From: an uncultured Nitrososphaerota archaeon
GTDB lineage: Archaea; Thermoproteota; Nitrososphaeria; Conexivisphaerales; DTJL01
Direction of reading: 5' to 3'
Length of the DNA: 64,000 bases
Assembly (NCBI GenBank): GCA_963842885.1
Contig: CAWJIE010000003.1
Span: 194,684 to 258,683, forward strand
Both the position numbers and the translations under genes were made by a program. Positions 19,479 to 34,631 of the stretch are shown here, piece after piece. A model generated the notes under the pieces. The model ran no database searches. It saw nothing but the letters and a program-made list of their open reading frames with translations, and was not told where the DNA came from. Within the stretch, counting starts at the first letter, position 1. Every line of letters begins with the position of its first letter.

Positions 19479-20123
19479 TCAAGGGATCCCTATCTCTTCA
19501 ACGAAGAGCCTGCCCACGACATCGGGTCTCCCGAAAAGCCCCGGCTTAGGGGCGTGGAGGGTCACCGTGACGTCGGCCTTGACGACGAGACCATGGTCCT
19601 CACCCGTATCGGAGTCCAAGCCAGAAGGAACGTCCACGGCCACGCGTAGTGCCTTGGCACCGTTGATCATCTCTATCGCCGAGGCGTGCGGTTCGCCCAC
19701 CTCGCCCTTTACGCCCGTGCCGAAAATGGCGTCGATGATGACCTGGGAGGATCGAAAGAGAGGCTCCAGCAGGCGGAGCTCGCCAGCCGTGCCCACTTCA
19801 ATCACTCGGACGTCAGCCATCGTGGAGAGCACCTGCCACTGCAGCGATGCCTCTTCAGCCTTTACCTTCTTCCGGTCACCCAGGAGGATGACCGTAACAG
19901 AGGCCCTGTCGTGGAGGTGCCGCCCGGCCGCGGCGCCGTCCCCTCCATTGTTGCCCGTGCCCGCGACCACAAGAACGGCTGGCTTCAAACTGAGGTCGTA
20001 CAGCCGTCCAACGACCTGGGCCAGAGCCTTCCCGGCGTTCTCCATCATCAGAAGCCTGGAGATGCCACTGGCGGCTGCCTTGTCCTCAGCCCTTCTCATT
20101 GAAGATGTGTCTACGGCCTTCAC
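19479..20123 (-). CDS. nnrE: NAD(P)H-hydrate epimerase (YjeF N-terminal domain)
   Basis: 214 aa; MENAGKALA and VLVVAGTGNNGGDGAAAGRHL. Confidence 0.75.
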   Translation of the reverse strand: MKAVDTSSMRRAEDKAAASGISRLLMMENAGKALAQVVGRLYDLSLKPAVLVVAGTGNNGGDGAAAGRHLHDRASVTVILLGDRKKVKAEEASLQWQVLSTMADVRVIEVGTAGELRLLEPLFRSSQVIIDAIFGTGVKGEVGEPHASAIEMINGAKALRVAVDVPSGLDSDTGEDHGLVVKADVTVTLHAPKPGLFGRPDVVGRLFVEEIGIP

Positions 20124-22883: not shown

Positions 22884-23813
22884 CTACTCTGACTTGACGC
22901 TCTTTGTGACGTCGCTCGCAACGTCGGCGGTTTCAGAGAAGATCTCAGAGCTGACCTTGTGCTTGAGAGGATGCGTCGGTTCGGGCTTATCAAGGAGTTT
23001 CGTCAGTCTGAGATGCTCTCCGGTGCCTCCGCGTCGGAGCTTGATGATCTCAGCCATTATAGAGATGGCTATCTCCTCCGGGGTCTCGGCGCCGATGTCG
23101 ATGCCGACGGGGGCATAAATCTGGAACAGCCTCGCGGCCGGCACACCCTCCTTAACAAGGTCCCTGTAGGCAGCATTGACACGGTTCTTGCTTCCAACCA
23201 TGCCGACGTAACGAGCCTTGGTGTCAAGCACGGAGCGAAGCGCCTCTACGTCGTACCGGTGCTCTGTGATGACCAATATGCTGTCATAGGAGGTGATCTT
23301 GACCTCCTTTATCTTCTGGAGCACGTCCTGTGTATAGATCTCGGCGTTAGGGAATGCCGATTCAGTGGCGAAGGGATCCAGGACCATCACGCGCTGTCCT
23401 AGGATCTCGGCTATCCGGTAGCAGCCCTTGGCGATGTTGCCAGATCCGAACATAATCAGGCGCTCAGGAGGCTCCACTAGCTCCAGCGCGATCTTGACCG
23501 TACCGCCGCACGCCATCCCCAGGCCGCTCCAGCTCTCGTCTCCGAGATTGAAGGTCTTGACACGAGTCTGGCCGTCCTCGAACACAAAGCGCGCCTCCCG
23601 GACCACATACTTCTCGACACAGCCGCCGCCGATCGTGCCCACCGTGGGCCCCGACTCTGGGATGACCATCTTCGTGCTGACTCCCCTCGGGACGGAACCG
23701 TCAGCCTCGACGACAGTTGCTACGACAATGCGCAACCCGTCGCCCAACATCCTCGACACGACAGTGTAGATGTCTTCCAAGCGGCTACACCAAGACTTCC
23801 AGCTCAGTCCCAC
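22884..23813 (-). CDS. XdhC/CoxI-family molybdenum-cofactor chaperone
   Basis: 309 aa; ATVVEADGSVPRGVSTKMV..GTIGGGCVE, Rossmann-like LIMFGSGNIAKG and YVGMVGSKNR. Start overlaps the tusA-like stop by 10 nt. Confidence 0.8.
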   Translation of the reverse strand: MGLSWKSWCSRLEDIYTVVSRMLGDGLRIVVATVVEADGSVPRGVSTKMVIPESGPTVGTIGGGCVEKYVVREARFVFEDGQTRVKTFNLGDESWSGLGMACGGTVKIALELVEPPERLIMFGSGNIAKGCYRIAEILGQRVMVLDPFATESAFPNAEIYTQDVLQKIKEVKITSYDSILVITEHRYDVEALRSVLDTKARYVGMVGSKNRVNAAYRDLVKEGVPAARLFQIYAPVGIDIGAETPEEIAISIMAEIIKLRRGGTGEHLRLTKLLDKPEPTHPLKHKVSSEIFSETADVASDVTKSVKSE

Positions 23814-24100
23814 CTTTGCCCGCAGGGGCCGATGGCCGGGAGCGGCTTATCCGCCATCTTCTCGGGAGATTTCTTGACAACCAGATGAAAATCCTCACCC
23901 TCTTCTCTGGAGTTCACGATCTCCTGGCCATGGTTCCAGCAGTACCTTAGAACGTTGTCCTTAGACGTGTGGTCGTTGACGACGATCTCTATGACCTCTC
24001 CCATCTGGGCTCCTTCGATCGCCCGCTTTGTCATCAAAATGGGCTTGGGGCAGGGTTCGTTCCTCGCATCAACCACCAATTGCGCTGCCGTTTTGGTCAA
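23804..24100 (-). CDS. tusA: TusA/SirA-like sulfur-carrier protein
   Basis: 98 aa; DARNEPCPKPILMTKRAI (CPxP active-site motif). Confidence 0.75.
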   Translation of the reverse strand: MTKTAAQLVVDARNEPCPKPILMTKRAIEGAQMGEVIEIVVNDHTSKDNVLRYCWNHGQEIVNSREEGEDFHLVVKKSPEKMADKPLPAIGPCGQRWD

Positions 24101-24304
24101 CAGTAATCCTTTGCATTTACGTGCAGGTGGTTTAAAATGTTATCCATGCGGGTCGAATGTAAAATAAATGCGATATGAACCTAGGACGTGGACGCGGCTC
24201 TGTGGCGAGCAAGTGGCAAGAGCTCCTCAGACGCAGGATGTGTAGGCCTTCATATTGACGAGGCAGATATCGTGTCCGGTACTTGTCGTCTTCTCTCGCC
24301 GCTT

Positions 24305-24320
24305 ACAATACTAATATAGC
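24305..24320 (+). promoter_or_regulatory. Putative TATA box (ACAATACTAATATAGC) upstream of the NapH-like gene
   Basis: AT-rich box about 15-25 nt upstream of ATG 24334, implying a short or absent leader. Confidence 0.35.
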
Positions 24321-24333
24321 TAGCAGGCAATTC

Positions 24334-25546
24334 ATGTCCCGGAACACCATGTTCAGGAAGCTGTTCCCGACCAGCAATGCTGCGACTGACCTCGTGGTGG
24401 TTATTGCAATCGTGGTTGCCGTCAGCTTCTTCATCTACTCGGCATCCGGCATCTTCATCGGAGGCATCCTGGCTTTCCTGTTCGGGCTGGCCACATGGAC
24501 CCTCATGACTTCGCCGAAGCCTTACAGGCTGAGGAGCATTTTCGTGTTCGGCCTTACTCTGGCGACCTGGACCGCCTTCCTGGCGTTCCTCGCCGAGCTG
24601 GGCCCCTCGTACTTGGGCAGGTGGCTCAGCACGCACGAGAGGGTCCCGCTGACGCCTGCCCCCATCACCACCAGCGGCTTCGTCTCCATCCTGTGCCCCT
24701 ATCTCCTCCCCGCGGCCCTGGGGCAGCCTGTGACCGTCTCTGTTCCCGTCTATATCAAGTTCTTCTCGTCTTTTCCGCCCAGCATCGACCTCTTCTCCGT
24801 AATCTTTCTATCCTACGTCGCCACCGCATTCGTGCTCGGCAAGGGCTGGTGCGGATGGCTGTGCCCATTCGGCGGGCTTGGAGAGACTCTGCGCCAACGC
24901 CACGAGCCCCTCAAGGTCTACACGAAGTCAGTGAAATGGATCAAGGATGTCTCGTCGCGGAGAGGCTTCGACCTCGAAGGCATGGAGCCGGGCCAGATGC
25001 TCCGCGACGTGAAGTACGCCTTCCTCGTCGTCACCCTCCTCCTGGCCCTCTTCTACTCAGTGCAATGGTTCTGCGTCTTCTGCTGGGCCGGGATCCTGGG
25101 GTGGTTCAGGTCGTCACTCAACATCTACGATCTTCATGGTCATCATGGGCGCCCTCTTCCTCGGGCTTCCTCTGCTCAGCACCAAGAAGTGGTGCCATTC
25201 CATCTGCCCGGTGGGCGCCGGCCTGAGCTTGGTGGACAGGGCCACTCCTTTCAGGATATCCGTGGACGAAGCCAAATGCAACGAATGCTATGACTGCTTG
25301 AACATCTGCCCCACCTTCGGGTTCGCCACGAAGGCAGACGGCGCGGTATACGTGACCGACACCTGCGACAAATGCTTGGTCTGCGTGTACAAGTGCCCCA
25401 GCAAGGCCATAGACCTGCACCTGTACAACATCAAGACAGATGCAAAGAAGTTCCTCATCCCTAGCGCGACGATCCTTGGCGCCTTCTGGTTCTACTGGTT
25501 CATCGTCGTGGTCTACAATCTCATCACGCTGAGGGTGCTCTTCTGA
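24334..25546 (+). CDS. NapH/MauN-like polytopic membrane iron-sulfur protein; apparent frameshift near 25115-25130
   Basis: KGWCGWLCPFGG and KKWCHSICPVG motifs, plus C-terminal CNECYDCLNICP and CDKCLVCVYKCP ferredoxin motifs. Several TM stretches. Confidence 0.65.
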
Positions 25547-26239
25547 TGGCTCTCGACACGCTGGCGGCAGGCCTCCTTCTCGGGCTCAGCAGCGGAGTGC
25601 AGTGCACCGTTACCTGCCTGCCCCTCCTGCTCACCCAGCTCACCGGGGGAAAAAGGACCGCGAGGGACGGCCTGCGCATATCTGTTCTTTTCTCACTGGG
25701 GAGGCTGGTGGTCTACTTCACTCTGTCCTGCCTTCTCTACTATTCCTTCAGGGCGTTCAGCGGAGCCTTAGGCAACCCCGTACCCGAATCGATTACGACG
25801 GCGCTGATGGGCGCGATCCTGATCTACTATTGTTTTCGAGCGATCGAAAGGAAGAAGGACACATCTTGCGCGGCAAGGTCCAAGGCCAAGCTCATCCGCC
25901 TGCCGTTCACCTCCCTTGCCGTGACCGCCAAGCCAGGGAGGAGCTGGACCGCTCTCTTCCTCGGCATCGTCTCGAGCATGAGCGTCTGCCTCCCGCTCGT
26001 GGCACTGATCTCCATTTCGGTCGCCTCTGACCTGGTCACCACCTTCACTTCGGTATCGATGTTCTGGCTGGGTTCGTCCGTCTACTCGATCGGGCTCGCG
26101 TTGGCGTTGGCTGGTGTCTCCCGCGTCAGGATAGGGGCGTCGCTGAGCAAGAGGGTGGGCTTCGTCGGAAGCCTTTCTGGCATCTTGCTGGGAGCGTTCA
26201 TGCTACTCGCAGGCTCTGGGCTCGCTGGCCCTTCCCTAG
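25546..26239 (+). CDS. DsbD_2/CcdA-like membrane protein; C-terminus uncertain
   Basis: LGLSSGVQCTVTCLPLL in the first TM helix, six or more hydrophobic segments. Start overlaps the upstream stop (TGATG). The track ORF runs to 26529 across the convergent YeeE gene; a TAG at 26237-26239 is one frame off. Confidence 0.5.
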
Positions 26240-26703
26240 AACAGCCGCGTGAAGACGCTGACGTAGTTCACAACCACGAACTGGAAGAAGAGGATCCCGA
26301 TGTAGAATCCTACCAGATAGATGATGGCGGCTCCGTTGCCAGTGGTGGCGTTGACGTGCTGCCTCAGTGGACATCCTTCCGCCATCACCGAGAAGAAGGC
26401 ATAGCCCAGGCCGCCTATCACCGACAGGATCAATGTGGCGACGGAGCTCGCGCCAGGTTCGTTATGCAGCATCAGAGGGAAATCAGCCATATGCGGAGAG
26501 AACCTGAAGAACAGAAGGTAGCCGACTAAGGCTCCGAGCGCCATGCCTACGATGGTCCTCATGAAAAGCGTGTCCCTGAAAAGGTAGAAGTCGCGGTATC
26601 CCGATATGGAACACGACTTCGACCTCTGCCATAGGTAGCCTATGATACCCCCAGCCGCGAGCGTGGTCAAGCCGATTTCCAGAGTCAAAGGCGGACCCTC
26701 CAT
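26236..26703 (-). CDS. YeeE/YedE-family sulfur/selenium transport protein, C-terminal-half homologue
   Basis: 155 aa, multi-TM; SKSCSISGYRDFYLFRD and AEGCPLRQH motifs typical of the family. Confidence 0.7.
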   Translation of the reverse strand: MEGPPLTLEIGLTTLAAGGIIGYLWQRSKSCSISGYRDFYLFRDTLFMRTIVGMALGALVGYLLFFRFSPHMADFPLMLHNEPGASSVATLILSVIGGLGYAFFSVMAEGCPLRQHVNATTGNGAAIIYLVGFYIGILFFQFVVVNYVSVFTRLF

Positions 26704-27173
26704 TTGATGTAGTTCGCTGAAATCACCACGCCGGAGATCATGCCGATGAGCCCCACGAGCGCTACGAAACTGCCGTACATCAAGGCCATTATGATGTGGA
26801 CGGAGCAGTAGCCCAACGTCAGCCCGAACATGGCCACGAAGAAACCGTTGATGAAATGATCCAGTGGATGCCTGGGCATGCGGAAGCTGAACTCCTTGTT
26901 CCGGAAGGTGGAGATGGAAGCGCCCACCAGCACGCCTACCACCGTCAGCACGGGGATGTCCACCGACGGATCATGGACATAGAGCGTCGTCCCGAACAGA
27001 TGGTTCACGATCCAGTCAATGAGGTCACTGGGGTGGCTGATGAAGCAGATGCCGAACGCCGACGGAGGGGCGACGTACACCCAAGCCTGGGCCACGGCGG
27101 CCCACAGGCCGGTCACGAACCCAGCTGTAAGCTTGTCTACCTTCAAGTGCATGCTCACCCTAGAAGGTATCAA
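26685..27173 (-). CDS. YeeE/YedE-family sulfur/selenium transport protein, N-terminal-half homologue
   Basis: 162 aa, multi-TM; PSAFGICFISHP and LGYCSVH conserved-Cys motifs. Overlaps the next gene by 19 nt. Confidence 0.7.
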   Translation of the reverse strand: MIPSRVSMHLKVDKLTAGFVTGLWAAVAQAWVYVAPPSAFGICFISHPSDLIDWIVNHLFGTTLYVHDPSVDIPVLTVVGVLVGASISTFRNKEFSFRMPRHPLDHFINGFFVAMFGLTLGYCSVHIIMALMYGSFVALVGLIGMISGVVISANYIKWRVRL

Positions 27174-28032
27174 CTACCTTGACCACAGCCTCCCCGATGT
27201 GCTTTATGATTTCAAAGACCTGCGTAGCAGGCGTAGGGTTCGTCATCTGGCCTGCCAGGCGATTGGCGTGCCCCGCTATGAGGCAGGCGCGAATCGGCTC
27301 ATAGCCTCCTGAGATGAGCGCGGAGACCATCCCGGTAATCGTGTCCCCCGTCCCACCAATGGGCTCCAGGGCAGGGATGTTGGGCTCAGAGATGGTGTAC
27401 ATAATCTTGCCGTCGTCGACGATGAAGTCGGTGGGCCCCTTGATGAGGAGATACCGAGGAGCGTTGCCGCCGGCATAGGCCTTCTCTATGAGCTTGGGCA
27501 CCTCCGTCGTGTCTATGTCGAAGAGCATGGATTTCACGTAGGCCGGGTGACCGGCCTCGGGATCGGCGAGGAAACATATCTCTCCGGCGTCGGGGGTGAA
27601 CAGGTCGAACTTCTTGCACGCGCCCGTGGCCTTCGCTATGAGCATGGAGCCCGCGTCGGCGATCATGAAGGGCCTCTTCTCCCAGTAGTCGAGCATCTCG
27701 ACGAACTCCATGAACGGTTTCCTGATGGGGAGGATGTAGTGCATGGTCACGGCGTTGGCGCCCAGCGCCCCGGCCTTCTCCGTGAGGTATGCGTACAGGG
27801 CGGCCGAACCGGCGCCCTTTCCCATGTCGCCGGCCACCACCCCCATGGGTGCCTCTATGCCCAAGGCCTCGGCCGCGGTGGCGGACGCGGCCATCATGGC
27901 CATGGCGCCTATGGAGCCCAGCTCCTTGGGGATGTACTTGTCTCCCAGCGAGATGGACCTGCCATCGTACTTTATCGTGCCGAAGATGAGGGAACTGTCC
28001 TCGACGGGCAGCGTCCCCGAAAGGAGGAGCAT
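27160..28032 (-). CDS. YjeF_C-like carbohydrate-kinase-fold protein (related to ADP-dependent NAD(P)HX dehydratase)
   Basis: 290 aa; FMIADAGSM, LFTPDAGEICFLAD, LLIKGPTDFIV and EPIGGTGDTITGMVSALISGG. Confidence 0.55.
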   Translation of the reverse strand: MLLLSGTLPVEDSSLIFGTIKYDGRSISLGDKYIPKELGSIGAMAMMAASATAAEALGIEAPMGVVAGDMGKGAGSAALYAYLTEKAGALGANAVTMHYILPIRKPFMEFVEMLDYWEKRPFMIADAGSMLIAKATGACKKFDLFTPDAGEICFLADPEAGHPAYVKSMLFDIDTTEVPKLIEKAYAGGNAPRYLLIKGPTDFIVDDGKIMYTISEPNIPALEPIGGTGDTITGMVSALISGGYEPIRACLIAGHANRLAGQMTNPTPATQVFEIIKHIGEAVVKVVDTF

Positions 28033-28593
28033 CTATTTCATCTTCTTCCAAGCTTGCAGGGCGGCTTCGTATGCCTTCTGCAAAGTGTATGCGCAGAGAG
28101 TGAAGCCCAGCTCGTTGGGCGAAACAGCCTTGTCGAGCGGCTGCCCTATCATCCTGAGAGCGAGGAGGGGGATGTCCGGGCATCCTCCACCAGATATGTT
28201 CACGATGACGCCCGTGGCCTTCTCGAACGTAAGCTTCATGTTCCCGACGCGGATCATCAGGTACTTCCCGAAGTCGACCTTCTTGACAAGTTTGCTGACC
28301 TGAAGCGGAGGGAGGTCGCCTTCGGATGCGAACACGACATCGAGTATGGGTATCCCGTCCGCCCTGAGCACCTTCTCTGCGGCGTTGACCTGGTTGCTGG
28401 GGACTGACATGGCGATGTCGCAGCCCGTCCTGACTTCAGGAGGTGGGGCGCCGGCCTTGGTATCGAGACCGGCTCGCTTGAGGACATGCTCGGCCCTCAT
28501 GGCATCCCTGAAAAGCTCGAAGAGGAAGAGAGACCTGGAGAGGCCGTATTGATCGGTCCGCTTATGCGGGGAAGACAACGCGTCGCTCGACAC
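28033..28593 (-). CDS. DUF3343 (putative Se/S-carrier-like) domain protein with an extra C-terminal Cys domain
   Basis: 186 aa; LFLFELFRDAMRAEHVLKRAGLD..PPPEVRTGCDIAMSV fits DUF3343. The C-terminal half has NISGGGCPDIP. Confidence 0.55.
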   Translation of the reverse strand: MSSDALSSPHKRTDQYGLSRSLFLFELFRDAMRAEHVLKRAGLDTKAGAPPPEVRTGCDIAMSVPSNQVNAAEKVLRADGIPILDVVFASEGDLPPLQVSKLVKKVDFGKYLMIRVGNMKLTFEKATGVIVNISGGGCPDIPLLALRMIGQPLDKAVSPNELGFTLCAYTLQKAYEAALQAWKKMK

Positions 28594-28725
28594 ATCATCG
28601 ACACCGTATGATATAATCGTTTGACTCGTCCGATACGCAATTCGTATTTATTCTATCTATCATGCTACAGATGCCTGGTTCCGCCCTGTGCACGCAGCCC
28701 AGTCCGGGTTGTGACTGAACCCGAA

Positions 28726-29206
28726 CTATGCCATCTTTGCGGTCTCCGAATCCAATCCCTCAAGCGTCTCGGCCAGCTTCTTGACGGCGACGACGACCTC
28801 AGGCGTGGGCTTCCCCTTCATCTTCCTGACTTGGACCCCTAGCGAGCATGATTCTGGTGCCCTCCAGCTCAGAGGCGATTACATGCGCCAGCACGGACAA
28901 CGGGAACTTGTGCACCAGAAAGAACTTGGTCTCCTGTCTCAGAAGGTCCTCCAGCACCAATTCGCCCGGCGCCAGGTTCCTGTCGACGGCATTGACCATC
29001 AGTATGACTTCAGGCCGGGCCTCCAAGACGTTAGGGACGAACTTCTCTGGCGCCGTTTCGCAGAGGAGTGCCCTGATGTTCACTAGGTGTCTGTGGACCT
29101 TTCTAAAAAGAAGAGGGCCAGCGACGTCGTCTCCGAAGTCGCTGCCTACGCACATCATCAAGGTTCGCCGGCCCTTTATAAGCCGGCGAATCTCTGCTGG
29201 GTCCAT
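28726..29206 (-). CDS. [NiFe]-hydrogenase maturation endopeptidase; apparent frameshift near 28838-28848
   Basis: LMMCVGSDFGDDVAGPLL, ILMVNAVDRNLAPGE, then GVQVRKMKGKPTPEVVVAVKKLAETL in the next frame. Confidence 0.7.
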
Positions 29207-29219
29207 TAGTGAGCTACGG

Positions 29220-30087
29220 TCAGGCGGTCTGGGCGGCCGGGGCTATTTGCTTTGCGTCCTTCAGCATCGCGTTGTACATGCCGACGAAGTTGAACGAGAA
29301 CGGGCAGACCCCTGCGCATAGGTTGCATTGGGTGCAGGTAGCCATCTGTTCCGAGACGTACTTCACCTCGGTCGGCGTCAGCCCCCTGCTCCTCTGTATC
29401 TGGTAGTACTTCCTCAGCTTCAGCACGGGCGCCTCCATTGGGTCGTGGTTGAAAGCTTCGTAGGTGGGGCATACCTCCACGCATCTCCCGCACCTTCCGC
29501 AGGCGGACGCGAAGGCGAGCATGTTGGTGCCAGTGTCGGCCTTTGTGACCCTCCAGTACAGGGTGGCGATGCCGTGCCTTACGGCCCCTCCTGCGAAGAA
29601 GGAGACCACCAGCCACACGTATATCAGCAGCAGGTGGAGCGTGCCGAAGTAGGCGTAGGCGGGTGTCCCGAAGCTCGACTAGCGACACGAAGCCGAAGAC
29701 CTCGATTGCCTGCACGAGGCCGACGACCGCGATGGGCACAAGGAACACCAGATCGACGAAGAACACCTTGCCATAGGCGACCCTGAAGAAGGGGTTCCTC
29801 ATGTATCGGAGCACCAGCCCGATCCCACCCGCGATGATGAGGATGCCGGTGATGCCGTGTATCCAGGAGAGGAGCCATCCGTAGCCTCCAAACACGTCGG
29901 CCGTGCCGGCGAGCAGGAAGGGGACCTCCATCACGAGACCCGTGATTATGTTGCCCCAGAGGCCGAGATGAAATACGAAGTCGCTCAGACCGACCGTGAA
30001 GCTTCTCGAGAAGAGGAGCGACAGGAGCCCTGGTTTCTGGGCGTGCAGCGAAGACAGTTTGTACTTCTGTTCCTTGCTCTTTGCCAT
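29220..30087 (-). CDS. Membrane di-haem-b-like (NarI/DsrM/HdrE-type) subunit fused to a 2x[4Fe-4S] (HdrC-like) domain; apparent frameshift near 29668-29672
   Basis: Four His in predicted TM helices (FVFHLG, SWIHGI, GTLHLL, AVRHGI). C-terminal CGRCGRCVEVCP and CTQCNLCAGVCP. No CCG-type domain seen. Confidence 0.6.
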
Positions 30088-30088
30088 T

Positions 30089-31012
30089 CTACTTCACCAC
30101 TTTCTCCTCTTTCTTGACGACCATCGGCGTCTCTTCCTTCCTGTTGTCGCGCCATCTGAGCGCGAAGAATGCCACTCCAGCCAGCAGAGGGATCCATGCG
30201 AGCCTCACCCACTGTTCGGCCGTCGAGAAGAGCTTGTTCTGGGCTGGGTAGGCGGACTTCACCACCGTGACCTCGGGCGTGGTGGACATTGTCTTGAATT
30301 CGTCGGCCGTAAGGACGTAGAAGGTTGACGTGTCGTTCTGGTAGAGCATCGTCGCGCCGTTGCCCAGTGCTGTGACCACATCTTGTCCGGTCGAAACCAT
30401 TTCGCTGCACGAACCCCAGTTCTTGGCGGTGGTGGTGAGGTTCGCGGCCTGGAGAGTCATGGCCGTCGGTCCCCCGCCGGGGCAGACCTGTACGCAGAAG
30501 GGCTGGTGGTGCCGTCCTCCGTGAAGTTGACGCAATGGTCGCACTTCAGGATCTTCTTGTTGACGTTGTCTGTGGTTATCGAGCCGAATGGGCAGACCGA
30601 CGTGCAAAGGAAGCAGCCGATGCACCTGTCCTTGTCATAGGACACCGTGCCCGACGGCAGTTGGGTCAGCGCGTGCGTCTGGCAGACGGTGGCGCAGGGT
30701 GCGTCGTTGCAGTGGAGGCAGTTCTCTGGAATGGGCAATGTGCCGTTAGGGCCTGGCGTGGCGACCCTGGTGTAGGCGTTGCTTGACGGGGTATTTTCTG
30801 ACAGTGCTCAGGTCTGGCTTCGTCATGCCGCTGTGGTACTGGTTGCAGGCTTCGACGCAATGGTCGCACCCGATGCAGTTCCCCACGACGATCAGCATGG
30901 CCCTCTTGGGTGTGTTGGCTTGGACCAGCTTCGGCGCCATGGCCGCCGTGACCACGACGAGGCTGCCGCCTGCGGCCGCGGTCTTCATGAAGGTCCTTCT
31001 ATCCATGTTCAT
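30089..31012 (-). CDS. Tat-signal 4x[4Fe-4S] HybA/DmsB/DsrO-like ferredoxin with C-terminal membrane anchor; two apparent frameshifts
   Basis: MNMDRRTFMKTAAAGG (twin-arginine motif). CIGCDHCVEAC, CLHCNDAPCATVC, CIGCFLCTSVCP and CDHC..CVQVCP. C-terminal LAWIPLLAGVAFFALRW helix. Pieces lie in three frames (shifts near 30745-30790 and 30495-30510). Confidence 0.7.
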
Positions 31013-31013
31013 C

Positions 31014-32428
31014 CTAATTCCCTCCAATAACCCGTTTCACCTTGCCATCCTCGTCCATCAGCTCGACCTTCAGGGCTTTCTCGAGGTGCGTAGCGCACGA
31101 GATGCACGGGTCGTAGGCTCTGATGACCAGGCCCACTTCATGCCATAGGTTGTCCTCGTTGACCTTCCCTGGGCTGACGTTCCGGTTCGCCGCGCTCCAG
31201 AGCGAAGCCTCGAAACCGTTGGCGTTGACGACGGTGGGCGTGATTATGTTGGCCTTGGTGATGTAGCCCTCGTCATTCCACTTGTAGTTGTGGATGACCG
31301 TTCCCCTTGCCGCCTCGCAGCAGCCGGCTCCTTCACCGGCCTTCATCTTGAAGGGGGTCTTGAGCTCTCCCTGGGTGATCGATGTGTCCGAGAGCAGCTG
31401 CTCGAGCCTTTCAGCGGCGTACACCAGGCAGACGTACCTGGCGAGGTTGTACTGCAGGGTCCCATGAACCGGGGAGCCGTACTTGCCCCTCAGTTCCTTG
31501 AGGAGCTTGTCGGCCATGTCGGTGCCGGCGCTCTTGGCTACGTTGACGCGAGCCAGAGGTCCGGTGCGGATGAAGGCCCTGTCCTTCTGCTGTCCCTTCA
31601 CCGTGACGCTCTTTCCGTAGGAGTATTCGCAGGGGTTCCTCCGCTATCTGGTTCATGTAGTCGGAGATCTTGAACTCGGAGATCTTGGCGCCCGCCTTGT
31701 CGATGATGGTGATGTCCCCCTTGTAGAAGCTGATGTTCCCTGCGTCGCTCATCGCCATGTAGCCTGACTCCACCTTGCCGAGTTCGATGTTGTCGTCCAC
31801 GAACTTCTGCAGCACCGGGGCGATGGCGGCGTCGTACCAGCCTATGACGTTCTTCTTCGCCTCCAGGACGTAGCCGAGGAGCTTCTTCCTAGTTTCCTCG
31901 TCGATTCCCCTGTTGAACCCGCCTGGGACGGCGGTCATCGGGATGGACGGCCTGAACGCCGATGGTCTCGATTATCTTCTGGCCCACCGCACGCGTGTAA
32001 ACGACCTGCTTGGCGACCTCGGGGAACTTCCTGTAGACCCCTATGATGTCGCGCTGCTTGAAGGGTAGCTCCGGGAGCAGGTAGTCGGGCCCCGCCAGTA
32101 TGAACAGATGCAGCGTGTGGTCGCCGAGTATCTCGCCCATCAGCATAAGCTCCCTGAGCTTCTCCGCCCGCTCTGGTATCTCGAGGCCAAGGCCGTTGTC
32201 GATGGCCTTGGCGCTGGCCAGGTGGTGGGGGATCGGGCAGACCCCGCAGATTCTGGTCACGATTATGGGGGCCCTGTGGACGAGCCTTCCTTCCAGGAAT
32301 CGCTCGAAGCCCCTGAACTCGGCAAAGTCTGCCATAGTCTTCGTGACCTTGCCCTTCTGATCTAGCTGCACCTTGACGTTAAGGTGCCCTTCGATTCTTG
32401 TTACCGGATCGATTTCAATTTGACTCAA
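31014..32428 (-). CDS. [NiFe]-hydrogenase large subunit (about 470 aa); two apparent frameshifts
   Basis: VTRIEGH, RICGVCPIPHH and DPCISCATH followed by a 23-aa C-terminal extension. Three ORF pieces joined at about 31938-31941 and 31632-31635 (C/G runs). Confidence 0.85.
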
Positions 32429-33121: not shown

Positions 33122-33673
33122 ATGCAATCGTTCAAGGTCATCGTTCTGTCTTCGGCCGGAGTGGCCATCGCCCTCCTTCTATCCCACTACACGATGACGT
33201 ATCAATTCGGCGTGTTGGTGGCCCTGCCGCAGCTGGGCGTATTCCTTGCTGCCGGGGCAGGCGGGCCCATATGGGGTCTGCTCGCAGGAGCGGCAGGAGG
33301 GCTGGGGCTCTATTACGGTCATTCTGACACCACGTGGCTGACCGTCTTGACCCTGACTGGGCTTACAGCAGGGCTCTTGTCCACCAAGTTCAGACCGACG
33401 GCGGCGGCCTTCGTGTCGTGGTTGACGGTGGGCCTGGTAGCCTCGTATGTCATCTACGCGCAGAACGGCCAGCCCAGCCAAGCCTTCTACTCCTGGCTCG
33501 CGACCTTCTCCTACGAGGTCGTGATATCGGCCACCGTCGTGGATGTACTGCTGTCGCTGTTTCGCGTGAGCAGAATAAAACAGAAAAAGGTTGAAAGCAG
33601 TGAAGTGGCGGCAGGCTCAGAAGCTCAGACAGAGGTCGGCCTCTATCATACGCCTGCTAATCTCGGCCCTTGA
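33122..33673 (+). CDS. Hypothetical polytopic membrane protein
   Basis: 183 aa, about five hydrophobic segments, Gly/Ala-rich helices. Divergent from the hydrogenase operon across an AT-rich spacer. Confidence 0.45.
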   Translation: MQSFKVIVLSSAGVAIALLLSHYTMTYQFGVLVALPQLGVFLAAGAGGPIWGLLAGAAGGLGLYYGHSDTTWLTVLTLTGLTAGLLSTKFRPTAAAFVSWLTVGLVASYVIYAQNGQPSQAFYSWLATFSYEVVISATVVDVLLSLFRVSRIKQKKVESSEVAAGSEAQTEVGLYHTPANLGP

Positions 33674-33967
33674 AGCGATGGCGAAGTCGTCTGCGAGGAG
33701 CTTGGGGTCAATCCCCTCCTCCCTGAGGGATTCCTCTTCGACGAGGAACTTCTTCCCTCCTTCGTCAGGGAAGAACTCGAGGAACTTCAAGGCGTATTCC
33801 CTGTCAACCCCCTTGACGGCGCAGCGAGCCCCCTTCCCCACGAAGGCTGCTGTCACCGTGTGGTTCTCATCGCCGCTAAGCATTCCAGCTGAGACCCTAA
33901 GCCCTTCCACGAAATAGGCACTGCTTACAGGAGGACGGAGGAACAGGACGAGGATGTTCTTGGACAA
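33617..33967 (-). CDS. DsrF/TusC-like protein
   Basis: 116 aa; ILVLFLRPPVSSAYFVEGLRV..AAFVGKGARC and C-terminal DLCLSF; DsrE/F-fold pattern. Confidence 0.6.
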   Translation of the reverse strand: MSKNILVLFLRPPVSSAYFVEGLRVSAGMLSGDENHTVTAAFVGKGARCAVKGVDREYALKFLEFFPDEGGKKFLVEEESLREEGIDPKLLADDFAIASRAEISRRMIEADLCLSF

Positions 33968-33979
33968 TTCTCGAGCCCC

Positions 33980-34240
33980 CTAGAGGAAGTTCACGACCTT
34001 GTCGGTCTCCATCATGCCGACCAAGTCGTCGAAGCCGATCGGATGGGCACCACTGGGGAAGGAGTCCCCAAGGCCACGGCGCGCAGCGTCGTCGCGGATG
34101 TAGTACACCTCTCCCTTGAAAGCACCTCTCTTTGCGACGTAGACTCCGTCCTGGAGCAAGACAACTCGGGCTCCCGGGTCGTTGGCAGCGTACGCAAAGG
34201 CCAGGTTCGCGAAAGGCTCGTCGATTAGATACAAAGTCAA
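33980..34240 (-). CDS. DsrH/TusB-like protein
   Basis: 86 aa; VVLLQDGVYVA..VYYIRDDAARRGL pattern. Confidence 0.6.
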   Translation of the reverse strand: MTLYLIDEPFANLAFAYAANDPGARVVLLQDGVYVAKRGAFKGEVYYIRDDAARRGLGDSFPSGAHPIGFDDLVGMMETDKVVNFL

Positions 34241-34253
34241 TCCACATCTCTTC

Positions 34254-34631
34254 CTATATCGTTATCAGTCTGCCACACTTGCTGGCCATGCCTGAGACGA
34301 AAGCGACGCTCACGATCTTCACGCCCTTGTAGTAGTCCTTCCCCTCGTCGAGCCCTCGGTTGTAGCTGCAGACCTCGCAGGCGTATATCTCGGCCCCCTT
34401 GGCCAACAGCGCCTTAAAGGAGTCCATGGGTAGCCTCTGCAGCACGGGAAACACCTGCGTCCCCAGAGCGTTGTAGATGCCGTCCAAGAACAGGAAGAAG
34501 GTGACCTTGTGTGATCTGTTCAAGGCGGCATCGGCGATCTTGCAGGCCGTGTCCCATCTTTGAGTCTGATACGGTCCTCCTGTCAGTATAATCCCAATGT
34601 CGGTCAATCTGAGTCTGTTGGACAGGGGCAT
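34254..34631 (-). CDS. DsrE/TusD-like sulfurtransferase
   Basis: 125 aa; IGIILTGGPY, VTFFLFLDGIY and IYACEVCSYNRGL (conserved Cys position). Confidence 0.65.
   Translation of the reverse strand: MPLSNRLRLTDIGIILTGGPYQTQRWDTACKIADAALNRSHKVTFFLFLDGIYNALGTQVFPVLQRLPMDSFKALLAKGAEIYACEVCSYNRGLDEGKDYYKGVKIVSVAFVSGMASKCGRLITI

Follow-up and report, generated by a model that had tools for sequence, protein, structure and literature searches.

A split YedE channel, a DUF3343-DUF8182 carrier and a ribokinase-superfamily enzyme as a conserved candidate module for chalcogen uptake

Introduction

The membrane protein YedE, the protein YedF and stand-alone DUF3343 proteins have been proposed as selenium-related candidates, DUF3343 being described as a stand-alone protein of 80-100 amino acids and YedE as occurring exclusively in selenium-utilising organisms (Lin et al. 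2015, PMC5322559). Here, we analysed a related locus of an uncultured Nitrososphaerota archaeon, namely four minus-strand genes at positions 26236-28593 of a 64,000-nucleotide stretch of contig CAWJIE010000003.1 (assembly GCA_963842885.1), the whole of which is called the window below. The four genes encode a carrier in which a DUF3343 domain is fused to a DUF8182 domain, an enzyme of the ribokinase superfamily, hereafter KIN, and the two halves of a YedE-type membrane protein. The arrangement recurs in archaea and bacteria, and in all likelihood YedE, carrier and KIN work as a unit.

The locus shares with the neighbourhood of Lin et al. a YedE-type membrane protein, sulfurtransferases of the TusA/YedF type and a DUF3343 domain with a conserved cysteine, as well as, in bacteria, frequent proximity to selD. 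It differs in that DUF3343 is fused to DUF8182 and always paired with KIN, YedE is split and the host is SelD-less. A kinase-fold partner is mentioned neither by Lin et al. (PMC5322559) nor in the other YedE/YedF/DUF3343 literature that we examined, and a study that mined selD neighbourhoods reported yedF and duf3343 only; our literature search retrieved no paper on the carrier-KIN pair and none mentioning DUF8182. According to a 2024 study, not one organism has a known transporter specific for selenium, and yedE of Methanococcus maripaludis is induced by selenium starvation, its deletion having no clear phenotype (PMC11097638).

In the thiosulfate uptake system YeeE/YeeD (TsuA/TsuB), the channel belongs to the same family and has conserved cysteines in its pore; as cited in PMC13293266, uptake depends on capture of the substrate by a TusA-like partner in the cytoplasm. 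In the window, TsuA models score lower than those for selenium-type YedE, and the partner is a DUF3343-DUF8182 carrier together with an ATP-type enzyme rather than YeeD alone. We know of no ATP-dependent step in YeeE/YeeD.

Another relative is the YTD cluster (DsrEFH type II), which likewise brings together a YeeE/YedE-like gene, tusA and DsrE-family genes (PMC13293266). The module was rejected as an instance of this cluster because the two “conserved hypothetical proteins” of the latter are DsrF/H-like subunits of DsrEFH type II (PMC13293266); moreover, the cluster is without a kinase-fold gene, and the carrier and KIN of the window are not DsrE/F/H proteins. A DsrE-DsrH-DsrE(F)-like trio recognised by Pfam at 33617..34631 on the minus strand of the window may itself correspond to DsrEFH type II.

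Finally, the selenium-dependent molybdenum (Mo) hydroxylase set (SelD, YqeB, YqeC) and XdhC-mediated sulfuration also feature chalcogen-delivery genes close to XdhC-family chaperones and xanthine-dehydrogenase-family enzymes. At variance with that set, SelD, YqeB and YqeC were not found here, and the XdhC of the window falls below the XdhC_rel_AOR cut-off. As for KIN, the closest solved structure, both by sequence (E 4e-8) and by fold, is that of NnrD (YjeF_C; PF01256, TIGR00196; PDB 2ax3, 3rph), with which it shares the superfamily fold and C-terminal motifs of the DADA-like, TP[H/D]xGE, KG..D and GGxGDxxxG types.

Organisation and conservation of the module

The carrier gene (28033..28593) has a GTG start and encodes 186 amino acids; it is followed by the gene of the 290-residue KIN (27160..28032), by that of the YedE-like N-terminal half (26685..27173; 162 amino acids with a TTG start) and by that of the 155-residue C-terminal half (26236..26703). 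A preliminary description made from the letters alone had placed four open reading frames (ORFs) at these positions, and the ORF listing gives the identical minus-strand set, all intact. Two of the three junctions reported there stand: the carrier stop codon TAG (28035-28033) abuts the ATG of KIN (28032) with a gap of 0 nt, and the genes of the two YedE halves share 19 nt (26703/26685). The third, in which KIN and the YedE N-half overlap by 14 nt (27173/27160), holds only with the TTG start at 27173. An alternative ATG at 27152 aligns with the start in a relative that is 94% identical (L003) and appears the more likely start; from this codon the N-half would count 155 amino acids and follow KIN after a 7-nt gap. 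The four genes are tightly packed under either start.

A genome scan for KIN retrieved 79 loci from archaea and bacteria, hosted by Nitrososphaerota, Bathyarchaeia, Dehalococcoidia, Thermodesulfobacteriota, Thermodesulfovibrio/Nitrospirota, Thermoanaerobacterales, the cyanobacteria Nostoc/Calothrix and one gammaproteobacterium, with at least six bacterial groups in all. Linkage was counted over 83 KIN genes with enough upstream sequence. The carrier gene lies directly upstream in 81 of these, the two exceptions being ORF-calling artefacts, and the gaps between carrier and KIN mostly range from -20 to +9 nt. YedE is found within operon range of KIN in 63/83 and TusA or YedF within 3 kb in 40/83. 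A recurrence in 79 loci and two domains of life goes far beyond what chance would produce. In bacteria, the partners are true members of their families, with YedE scoring 491 bits (cut-off 200) and YedF 225 bits (cut-off 110).

Linkage of KIN to YedE and DUF3343, a premise of the preliminary description, is kept even in the form of fusions, of which there are two types. YedE-DUF3343-DUF8182 fusions of 543-588 amino acids occur at L067:4238-6004, L075:4367-5998 and L081:4349-5998, and carrier-KIN fusions of 514-588 amino acids are found in five representative clusters (P0131, P0132, P0136, P0138 and P0148). Together, the two types place the carrier physically between the channel and the enzyme. 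The module proteins presumably form a physical complex.

In the KIN tree, the protein of the window belongs to a Nitrososphaerota clade that is sister to a Dehalococcoidia clade with a split YedE downstream, and the latter clade holds carriers with selenocysteine (Sec).

One close relative harbours tandem, mirrored modules (L007:5466-10255; carrier-KIN-YedE_N-YedE_C, then YedE_N-YedE_C-carrier-KIN), and its second KIN branches off deeply in the tree, on a long stem. Many Dehalococcoidia possess two adjoining paralogous modules, one with a full-length YedE and YedF, the other with a split YedE and a Sec carrier. At Desulfobulbaceae-type loci (L040, L042, L045, L047, L049, L050, L052, L058, L066 and L069), three genes follow KIN, encoding a MoaD/ThiS-like small protein (e.g. 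L042:4784-5047), a conserved 189-residue protein that matches no family and a Rossmann-fold protein weakly similar to ThiF; this trio might represent a branch of the pathway that works through a thiocarboxylate. The natural carrier-KIN and YedE-carrier fusions would make good single-chain targets for structure prediction of the complex.

KIN is distinct from NnrD

KIN passes the PF01256 (Carb_kinase) cut-off by a small margin (30.2 bits against 27), over residues 120-264 only, which cover profile positions 93-223 of 242. On the NnrD equivalog model TIGR00196, it reaches 32.6 bits where the cut-off demands 129.85, the match being confined to residues 110-264. A true NnrD is encoded on another contig of the same genome, where a profile search located it with 154 bits (G000:C5:392963-393700). 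Likewise, the separate YjeF_N gene that the preliminary description had pointed out at 19479-20123 is real (149.6 bits). Alignment of KIN with the genome's own NnrD by hhalign is restricted to 123 C-terminal columns with 27% identity, and in the tree KIN constitutes its own clade, separated from NnrD by a very long branch.

The AlphaFold2 (AF2) model of KIN has a predicted local distance difference test (pLDDT) score of 93 and adopts the ribokinase-superfamily fold. Foldseek gave 109 PDB matches at E<=0.001, ribokinase-superfamily throughout among the matches listed. The best is the Nnr protein TM0922 (TM-score 0.56), and scores are around 0.5-0.6 for Nnr, ribokinase, PdxK, ThiD and ThiM alike. 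KIN keeps the nucleotide-site and catalytic motifs that it shares with NnrD, ADAG, TPDxGE, KG..D and GGTGD, here as IADAG (124-128), FTPDxGE (145-151), LIKG..D (195-202) and GGTGDTITG (226-234). GGTGD is invariant in 78 KIN sequences, and no cysteine is conserved in the family. The kinase-fold signature read from the translation is borne out by this ribokinase-like fold, by the GxGD anion hole and by the catalytic aspartate (D230, codon 27343-27345). Differences from NnrD are a TPD in place of TPH, a family-specific D-x-x-A-x-HPAY block inserted right after TPDxGE, and an N-terminal third (110 residues) that cannot be aligned to NnrD; in addition, KIN invariably comes with a Cys/Sec carrier, as neighbour or as fusion, whereas true NnrD is separate in the genome. 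Judging from these sequences, KIN would be an active phosphotransferase of YjeF_C (NnrD) descent with a substrate different from that of NnrD.

The simplest competing explanation is that KIN is a second, divergent NAD(P)HX dehydratase and that its sulfur- and selenium-related neighbours are coincidental. The narrowly passed PF01256 score speaks for it, as do the public annotations of its relatives: a protein search returned 2,599 KIN-related proteins at E <= 0.001, whose named sources, among the matches listed, read “NAD(P)H-hydrate dehydratase” or “sugar kinase”. However, the equivalog model is missed by about 97 bits, the first 110 residues do not align with NnrD, the genome holds a true NnrD elsewhere, and the carrier is paired with KIN in effectively all 83 cases and fused to it in some. 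The TIGR00196 score, the separate NnrD, the tree and the hhalign result effectively refute the explanation, which we consider extremely improbable; that KIN might group with bona fide NnrD enzymes was among the outcomes on which the preliminary description would have abandoned its proposal. The identity of the module and the distinctness of KIN from NnrD are very probably correct, and both database labels are probably wrong for the KIN clade.

A different possibility is that KIN is a small-molecule kinase acting on an alcohol group of a metabolite or cofactor precursor and that sulfide or selenide from the carrier displaces the phosphate to form a C-S or C-Se bond, so that the locus would be a biosynthetic cassette and not an uptake system. 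To our knowledge, all characterised ribokinase-superfamily members phosphorylate carbon-bound hydroxyls, and KIN has the fold and motifs of that superfamily; the MoaD/ThiS-like and further genes that follow KIN at Desulfobulbaceae-type loci also fit a cassette of this kind. Yet no partner for a displacement step is conserved across clades, the universal companion being the carrier and, mostly, YedE, and fusion to the channel through the carrier is better suited to trafficking. We regard a biosynthetic cassette as quite unlikely.

The carrier and its cysteines

The N-terminal domain of the carrier (residues 22-86; 28336..28530, minus strand) matches PF11823 (Se_S_carrier) with 47.7 bits for a gathering cut-off of 25, which settles the DUF3343 assignment made from the sequence by eye. 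Residues G57, C58 and D59 of its RTGCD motif are invariant in 50 carrier homologues (Cys58 codon, 28420-28422). The C-terminal domain (residues ~95-186; 28036..28311), described earlier as a second domain with GGGCPDIP, probably corresponds to DUF8182 (PF26554), to judge from precomputed Pfam matches of homologues that are 57-62% identical to the window carrier. In its N-x-SGGGCPD motif, Ser134, Gly135 and Gly136 are invariant and Gly137 and Cys138 are at least 90% conserved in the same 50 homologues; a third cysteine, Cys167, is conserved as well (codons 28180-28182 for Cys138 and 28093-28095 for Cys167). The motifs RTGCD, GGGCPDIP and, in KIN, GGTGDTITG are all present as quoted in the preliminary description.

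The AF2 model of the carrier (pLDDT 85) predicts Cys138 at the N-terminus of a helix. When compared with the PDB, the carrier fold had no match at E<0.01, the best (E 0.017) being generic ferredoxin-like folds, and the carrier profile had no match among PDB sequences.

A genuinely split YedE

The preliminary description had recognised two half-size YeeE/YedE proteins with conserved cysteine motifs and asked whether the split was genuine or due to an indel. Against PF04143 (Sulf_transp), the C-half passes the cut-off of 27 with 30.5 bits and the N-half stays just below it with 26.0 bits. The best NCBIfam model for both is TIGR04112 (seleno_YedE), matched over positions 6-134 by the N-half, with 39.1 bits, and over 186-304 by the C-half, with 64.7 bits; thiosulfate TsuA models score below seleno_YedE on both halves. 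TIGR04112 is an equivalog for a single protein of ~340-400 amino acids with a threshold of >=200 bits, which neither half reaches. When aligned with full-length YedE, the N-half corresponds to residues 15-146 and the C-half to residues 201-320, and none of the four cysteine motifs is lost: Cys43 (GIC) and Cys123 (GYC) lie in the N-half, Cys31 (RSKSC) and Cys111 (EGCPLRQ) in the C-half.

Assembly errors deserve attention here, because several neighbouring genes of the window, encoding the hydrogenase large subunit, a polyferredoxin and a NapH-like protein, are visibly frameshifted relative to L003, and a single yedE gene could have been broken in the same way. Against this, the two-gene layout with an identical 19-nt overlap is found in the window, L003, L004 and L007, in ~18 Dehalococcoidia loci the halves are separate, with junctions of other types, the genome itself contains two further split pairs (G000:C3:21815-22713 and G000:C3:446218-447122), and the split point coincides with the boundary of an internal repeat of YedE. 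These observations effectively refute an indel artefact, which we deem next to impossible; the split is genuine. In one of the two further pairs, an internal TAG is present in the search frame.

Selenium in the bacterial modules

Dehalococcoidia carriers that appeared truncated were translated through an in-frame TGA. In at least 12 Dehalococcoidia loci (L022, L023, L026, L029-L033, L036, L038, L039 and L044; e.g. L023:5840-5842), the codon of Cys138 is such a TGA, read as Sec (GGGUPD), with a conserved downstream frame (GGGUPDIP...TICAYT). The TGA is followed, after 17 nt, by a short hairpin whose loop reads G(G/A)U and which resembles a selenocysteine insertion sequence (SECIS); as this hairpin is inside the coding sequence, it is modest evidence. 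SelD is present in all six genomes searched out of the 12 hosts of Sec-form carriers. The exchange of Sec and Cys at residue 138 designates this position as the reactive centre of the carrier. A 2026 selenoproteome review does not list the family under PF11823, PF26554 or the GGU/GUP motif.

Further links come from selD itself, which lies immediately downstream of KIN in at least four loci (L053, L056, L060 and L061) and within ~400 nt of it in two randomly sampled Dehalococcoidia (G081 and G106). Because selD is co-operonic with KIN, the latter is unlikely to replace SelD in bacteria. Overall, SelD is found in 31 of 45 KIN-bearing genomes; the 14 without it are those of all ten Nitrososphaerota, both cyanobacteria, the gammaproteobacterium and one Desulfobacterales. 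In a sample of 121 Dehalococcoidia genomes, 86 (71%) have SelD and six have KIN, five of them with SelD.

Transport in this YedE/YeeE subfamily could run in either direction, so that import has to be weighed against the export or detoxification of an oxyanion, for example sulfite or selenite. Several Sec-containing transporter-associated proteins have been implicated in metalloid resistance (review, PMC13188914). However, the module is co-operonic with the assimilatory partners selD, YedF and TusA and linked to XdhC and Mo hydroxylases, and selenium starvation is what induces yedE in M. maripaludis (PMC11097638). Export is therefore very improbable.

The module in the Nitrososphaerota

In the window genome (87% complete), the best match to the SelD model scores 73 bits against a cut-off of 125, tRNA-Sec was not found, and YqeB and YqeC gave no TIGR03172 or TIGR03309 match; SelD is also missing from all ten KIN-bearing Nitrososphaerota genomes (0/10). 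With SelD, YqeB and YqeC not found, the canonical selenium-dependent Mo-hydroxylase trait was discarded for this genome. The latter nevertheless encodes about ten large subunits of xanthine-dehydrogenase-family Mo hydroxylases, together with a normal cysteine desulfurase (496 bits).

Two candidate acceptors lie ~2 kb from the module on the same strand: a TusA-like sulfurtransferase (23804..24100; assigned by Pfam and TusA/YedF-N-like in NCBIfam) and an XdhC-family Mo-cofactor maturation factor (22884..23813), recognised by Pfam and nearest in NCBIfam to NF045664 (XdhC_rel_AOR), with 217 bits, below the cut-off of that model. The closest relatives (L003-L007) keep the whole island in the order hydrogenase operon; carrier, KIN, YedE N-half and YedE C-half; convergent DsbD_2/NapH-like genes; TusA and XdhC. 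In another archaeal subclade (seven Nitrososphaerota loci, L008-L013 and L070), the DsrE-DsrH-DsrE trio known from the window is divergent from a carrier-KIN-TusA-XdhC series; TusA and XdhC come directly after KIN in Nitrososphaerota other than the window archaeon. Mo-hydroxylase subunits and a MocA-like gene are located within 4 kb of the module in L012 and L013. A similar association exists in Calothrix, where a YedE-carrier fusion and KIN are flanked by an xdhA-like gene on one side and an xdhB-like gene on the other. Two conserved proteins of 422 and 407 amino acids that have no Pfam or NCBIfam match are encoded there (L093:3235-6051) and separate the xdhA-like gene from the fusion.

TusA and XdhC are likely downstream acceptors of the module, and there is about an even chance that XdhC and the Mo cofactor are the sink. 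Because no machinery for selenium use was found in the assembly, the cargo in this archaeon is probably sulfur rather than selenium. The principal alternative is a SelD-independent use of selenium even here: selenium imported by YedE would be activated by the carrier and KIN and passed via TusA/XdhC to become a labile ligand of the Mo cofactor. Both YedE halves match seleno_YedE best, the sister KIN clade has Sec carriers and bacterial modules adjoin selD and YedF, all of which would be expected from such a route; so would the cyanobacteria and the gammaproteobacterium, where a bona fide YedE (423 bits) is fused to the carrier without any SelD being found, and the position of the Calothrix fusion inside an xdh-like operon. 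Nonetheless, SelD, tRNA-Sec, YqeB and YqeC all went unfound in the window genome, selD, where present, is often co-operonic with KIN and so is not replaced there, and every specific use of selenium known to us needs the selenophosphate made by SelD. Selenium use in the window archaeon hence seems unlikely.

Immediate surroundings in the window

The carrier gene is separated from the hydrogenase operon by a spacer read at 28594..28725 (minus strand). It contains an AT-rich, TATA-like ATTATATC at 28610-28617, ~17-24 nt before the GTG of the carrier, which is a candidate promoter of the carrier gene's own. A hairpin (CGGGTT...AACCCG) occurs at ~28700-28722, just past the point where the frame of the hydrogenase maturation protease seems to end. 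In L007, the ORF of this protease overlaps the carrier start, which hints that the hydrogenase operon may be read through into the module in some relatives.

On the other side, genes of a NapH-like iron-sulfur (FeS) membrane protein and a DsbD_2-like thiol-disulfide membrane protein, assigned by Pfam (24283..26239, plus strand), converge on the YedE C-half, and this arrangement is kept in L003-L006. The DsbD_2 alignment stops at residue 223 of the 327 of the window protein; the frame runs ~100 amino acids beyond the expected stop, its 3' end being frameshifted with respect to L003. More generally, the segments 29206-32428, 24283-25546 and 25546-26529 are frameshifted in the window and correspond to single ORFs in L003: the hydrogenase large subunit and the polyferredoxin are each broken into three pieces, and the haem-b/FeS protein and the NapH-like protein into two. 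These breaks look like assembly indels or decay, and they spare the four module genes.

Proposed mechanism and implications

The preliminary description had suggested an activation step acting on the chalcogen or on its carrier, and the genomic evidence favours such a reading. The four genes would form one module for the uptake of a chalcogen (sulfur or selenium) and its loading onto a protein. The two half-size membrane proteins would assemble into a YedE-type channel, at the cytoplasmic side of which the DUF3343-DUF8182 carrier would bind the incoming species through its reactive cysteines, the key one being Cys138. KIN would then spend ATP (or ADP) on the carrier-bound species, making the capture irreversible. 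The likeliest chemistry would be phosphorylation by KIN of an -OH or -S(e)- of the adduct, creating a leaving group, followed by displacement of the phosphate by a second carrier cysteine to yield a persulfide, a selenotrisulfide or a similar species; the analogy is with the relative NnrD, which phosphorylates and then eliminates a hydroxyl. The product would go to TusA/YedF and onward to SelD or XdhC. In the window archaeon, TusA, perhaps together with the DsrEFH-like trio, would hand sulfur on to XdhC, which would use it to mature the Mo cofactor of the ~ten Mo hydroxylases.

Taken as a whole, the reading that we favour on balance is that an imported chalcogen is captured on the carrier at the expense of ATP; the layer of ATP-driven capture or activation by itself is a tentative proposal with somewhat less than an even chance of being right. 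The sequences show the gene order and its conservation, the fusions, the Sec/Cys site, the distinctness of KIN from NnrD and the genuine split of YedE, from which we infer the complex, ATP use, chemistry, cargo identity and sink. A number of points weigh against this reading. We know of no ribokinase-superfamily enzyme that acts on a protein-bound or inorganic chalcogen. With a normal cysteine desulfurase present, there is no evident need for a dedicated supply of sulfur to sulfurate the Mo cofactor. Sulfur as the cargo is further called into question by the YedE halves, which fit the selenium-type model better than TsuA, and by the Dehalococcoidia sister clade, which is clearly linked to selenium; the absences on which the case for sulfur is built are provisional at the completeness of this genome. 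Two broader arguments were dropped. Within Dehalococcoidia, the joint presence of KIN and SelD has no discriminating value, at 5/6 against a background of 71%. Mo-cofactor maturation was rejected as a general role because PF02738 (Mo hydroxylase) was not found in 21 of the 45 KIN-bearing genomes; the Mo cofactor is, for that reason, a lineage-specific sink and not the general purpose of the module.

A bolder version of ATP-driven capture would make the carrier and KIN the missing energised first step by which prokaryotes assimilate selenium and sulfur via YedE. KIN would phosphorylate a protein-bound chalcogen adduct at the Cys/Sec site, a chemistry new for the superfamily, and in SelD-less lineages (Nitrososphaerota and some cyanobacteria) the chalcogen, possibly selenium, would reach Mo hydroxylases without selenophosphate. 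We put this forward as a speculative and rather doubtful extension.

The module bears on the question of how prokaryotes acquire trace selenium and pass it to SelD. The near-obligate carrier-KIN pair, the YedE fusions and the co-operonic selD provide a concrete and testable set of partners for YedE, which may explain why YedE alone is uninformative, and the Sec/Cys site pinpoints the residue to probe in the carrier. The recurrence of the set points to an undescribed ATP-using step in sulfur or selenium uptake and, in the lineage of the window archaeon, suggests a sulfur route to XdhC and many Mo hydroxylases.

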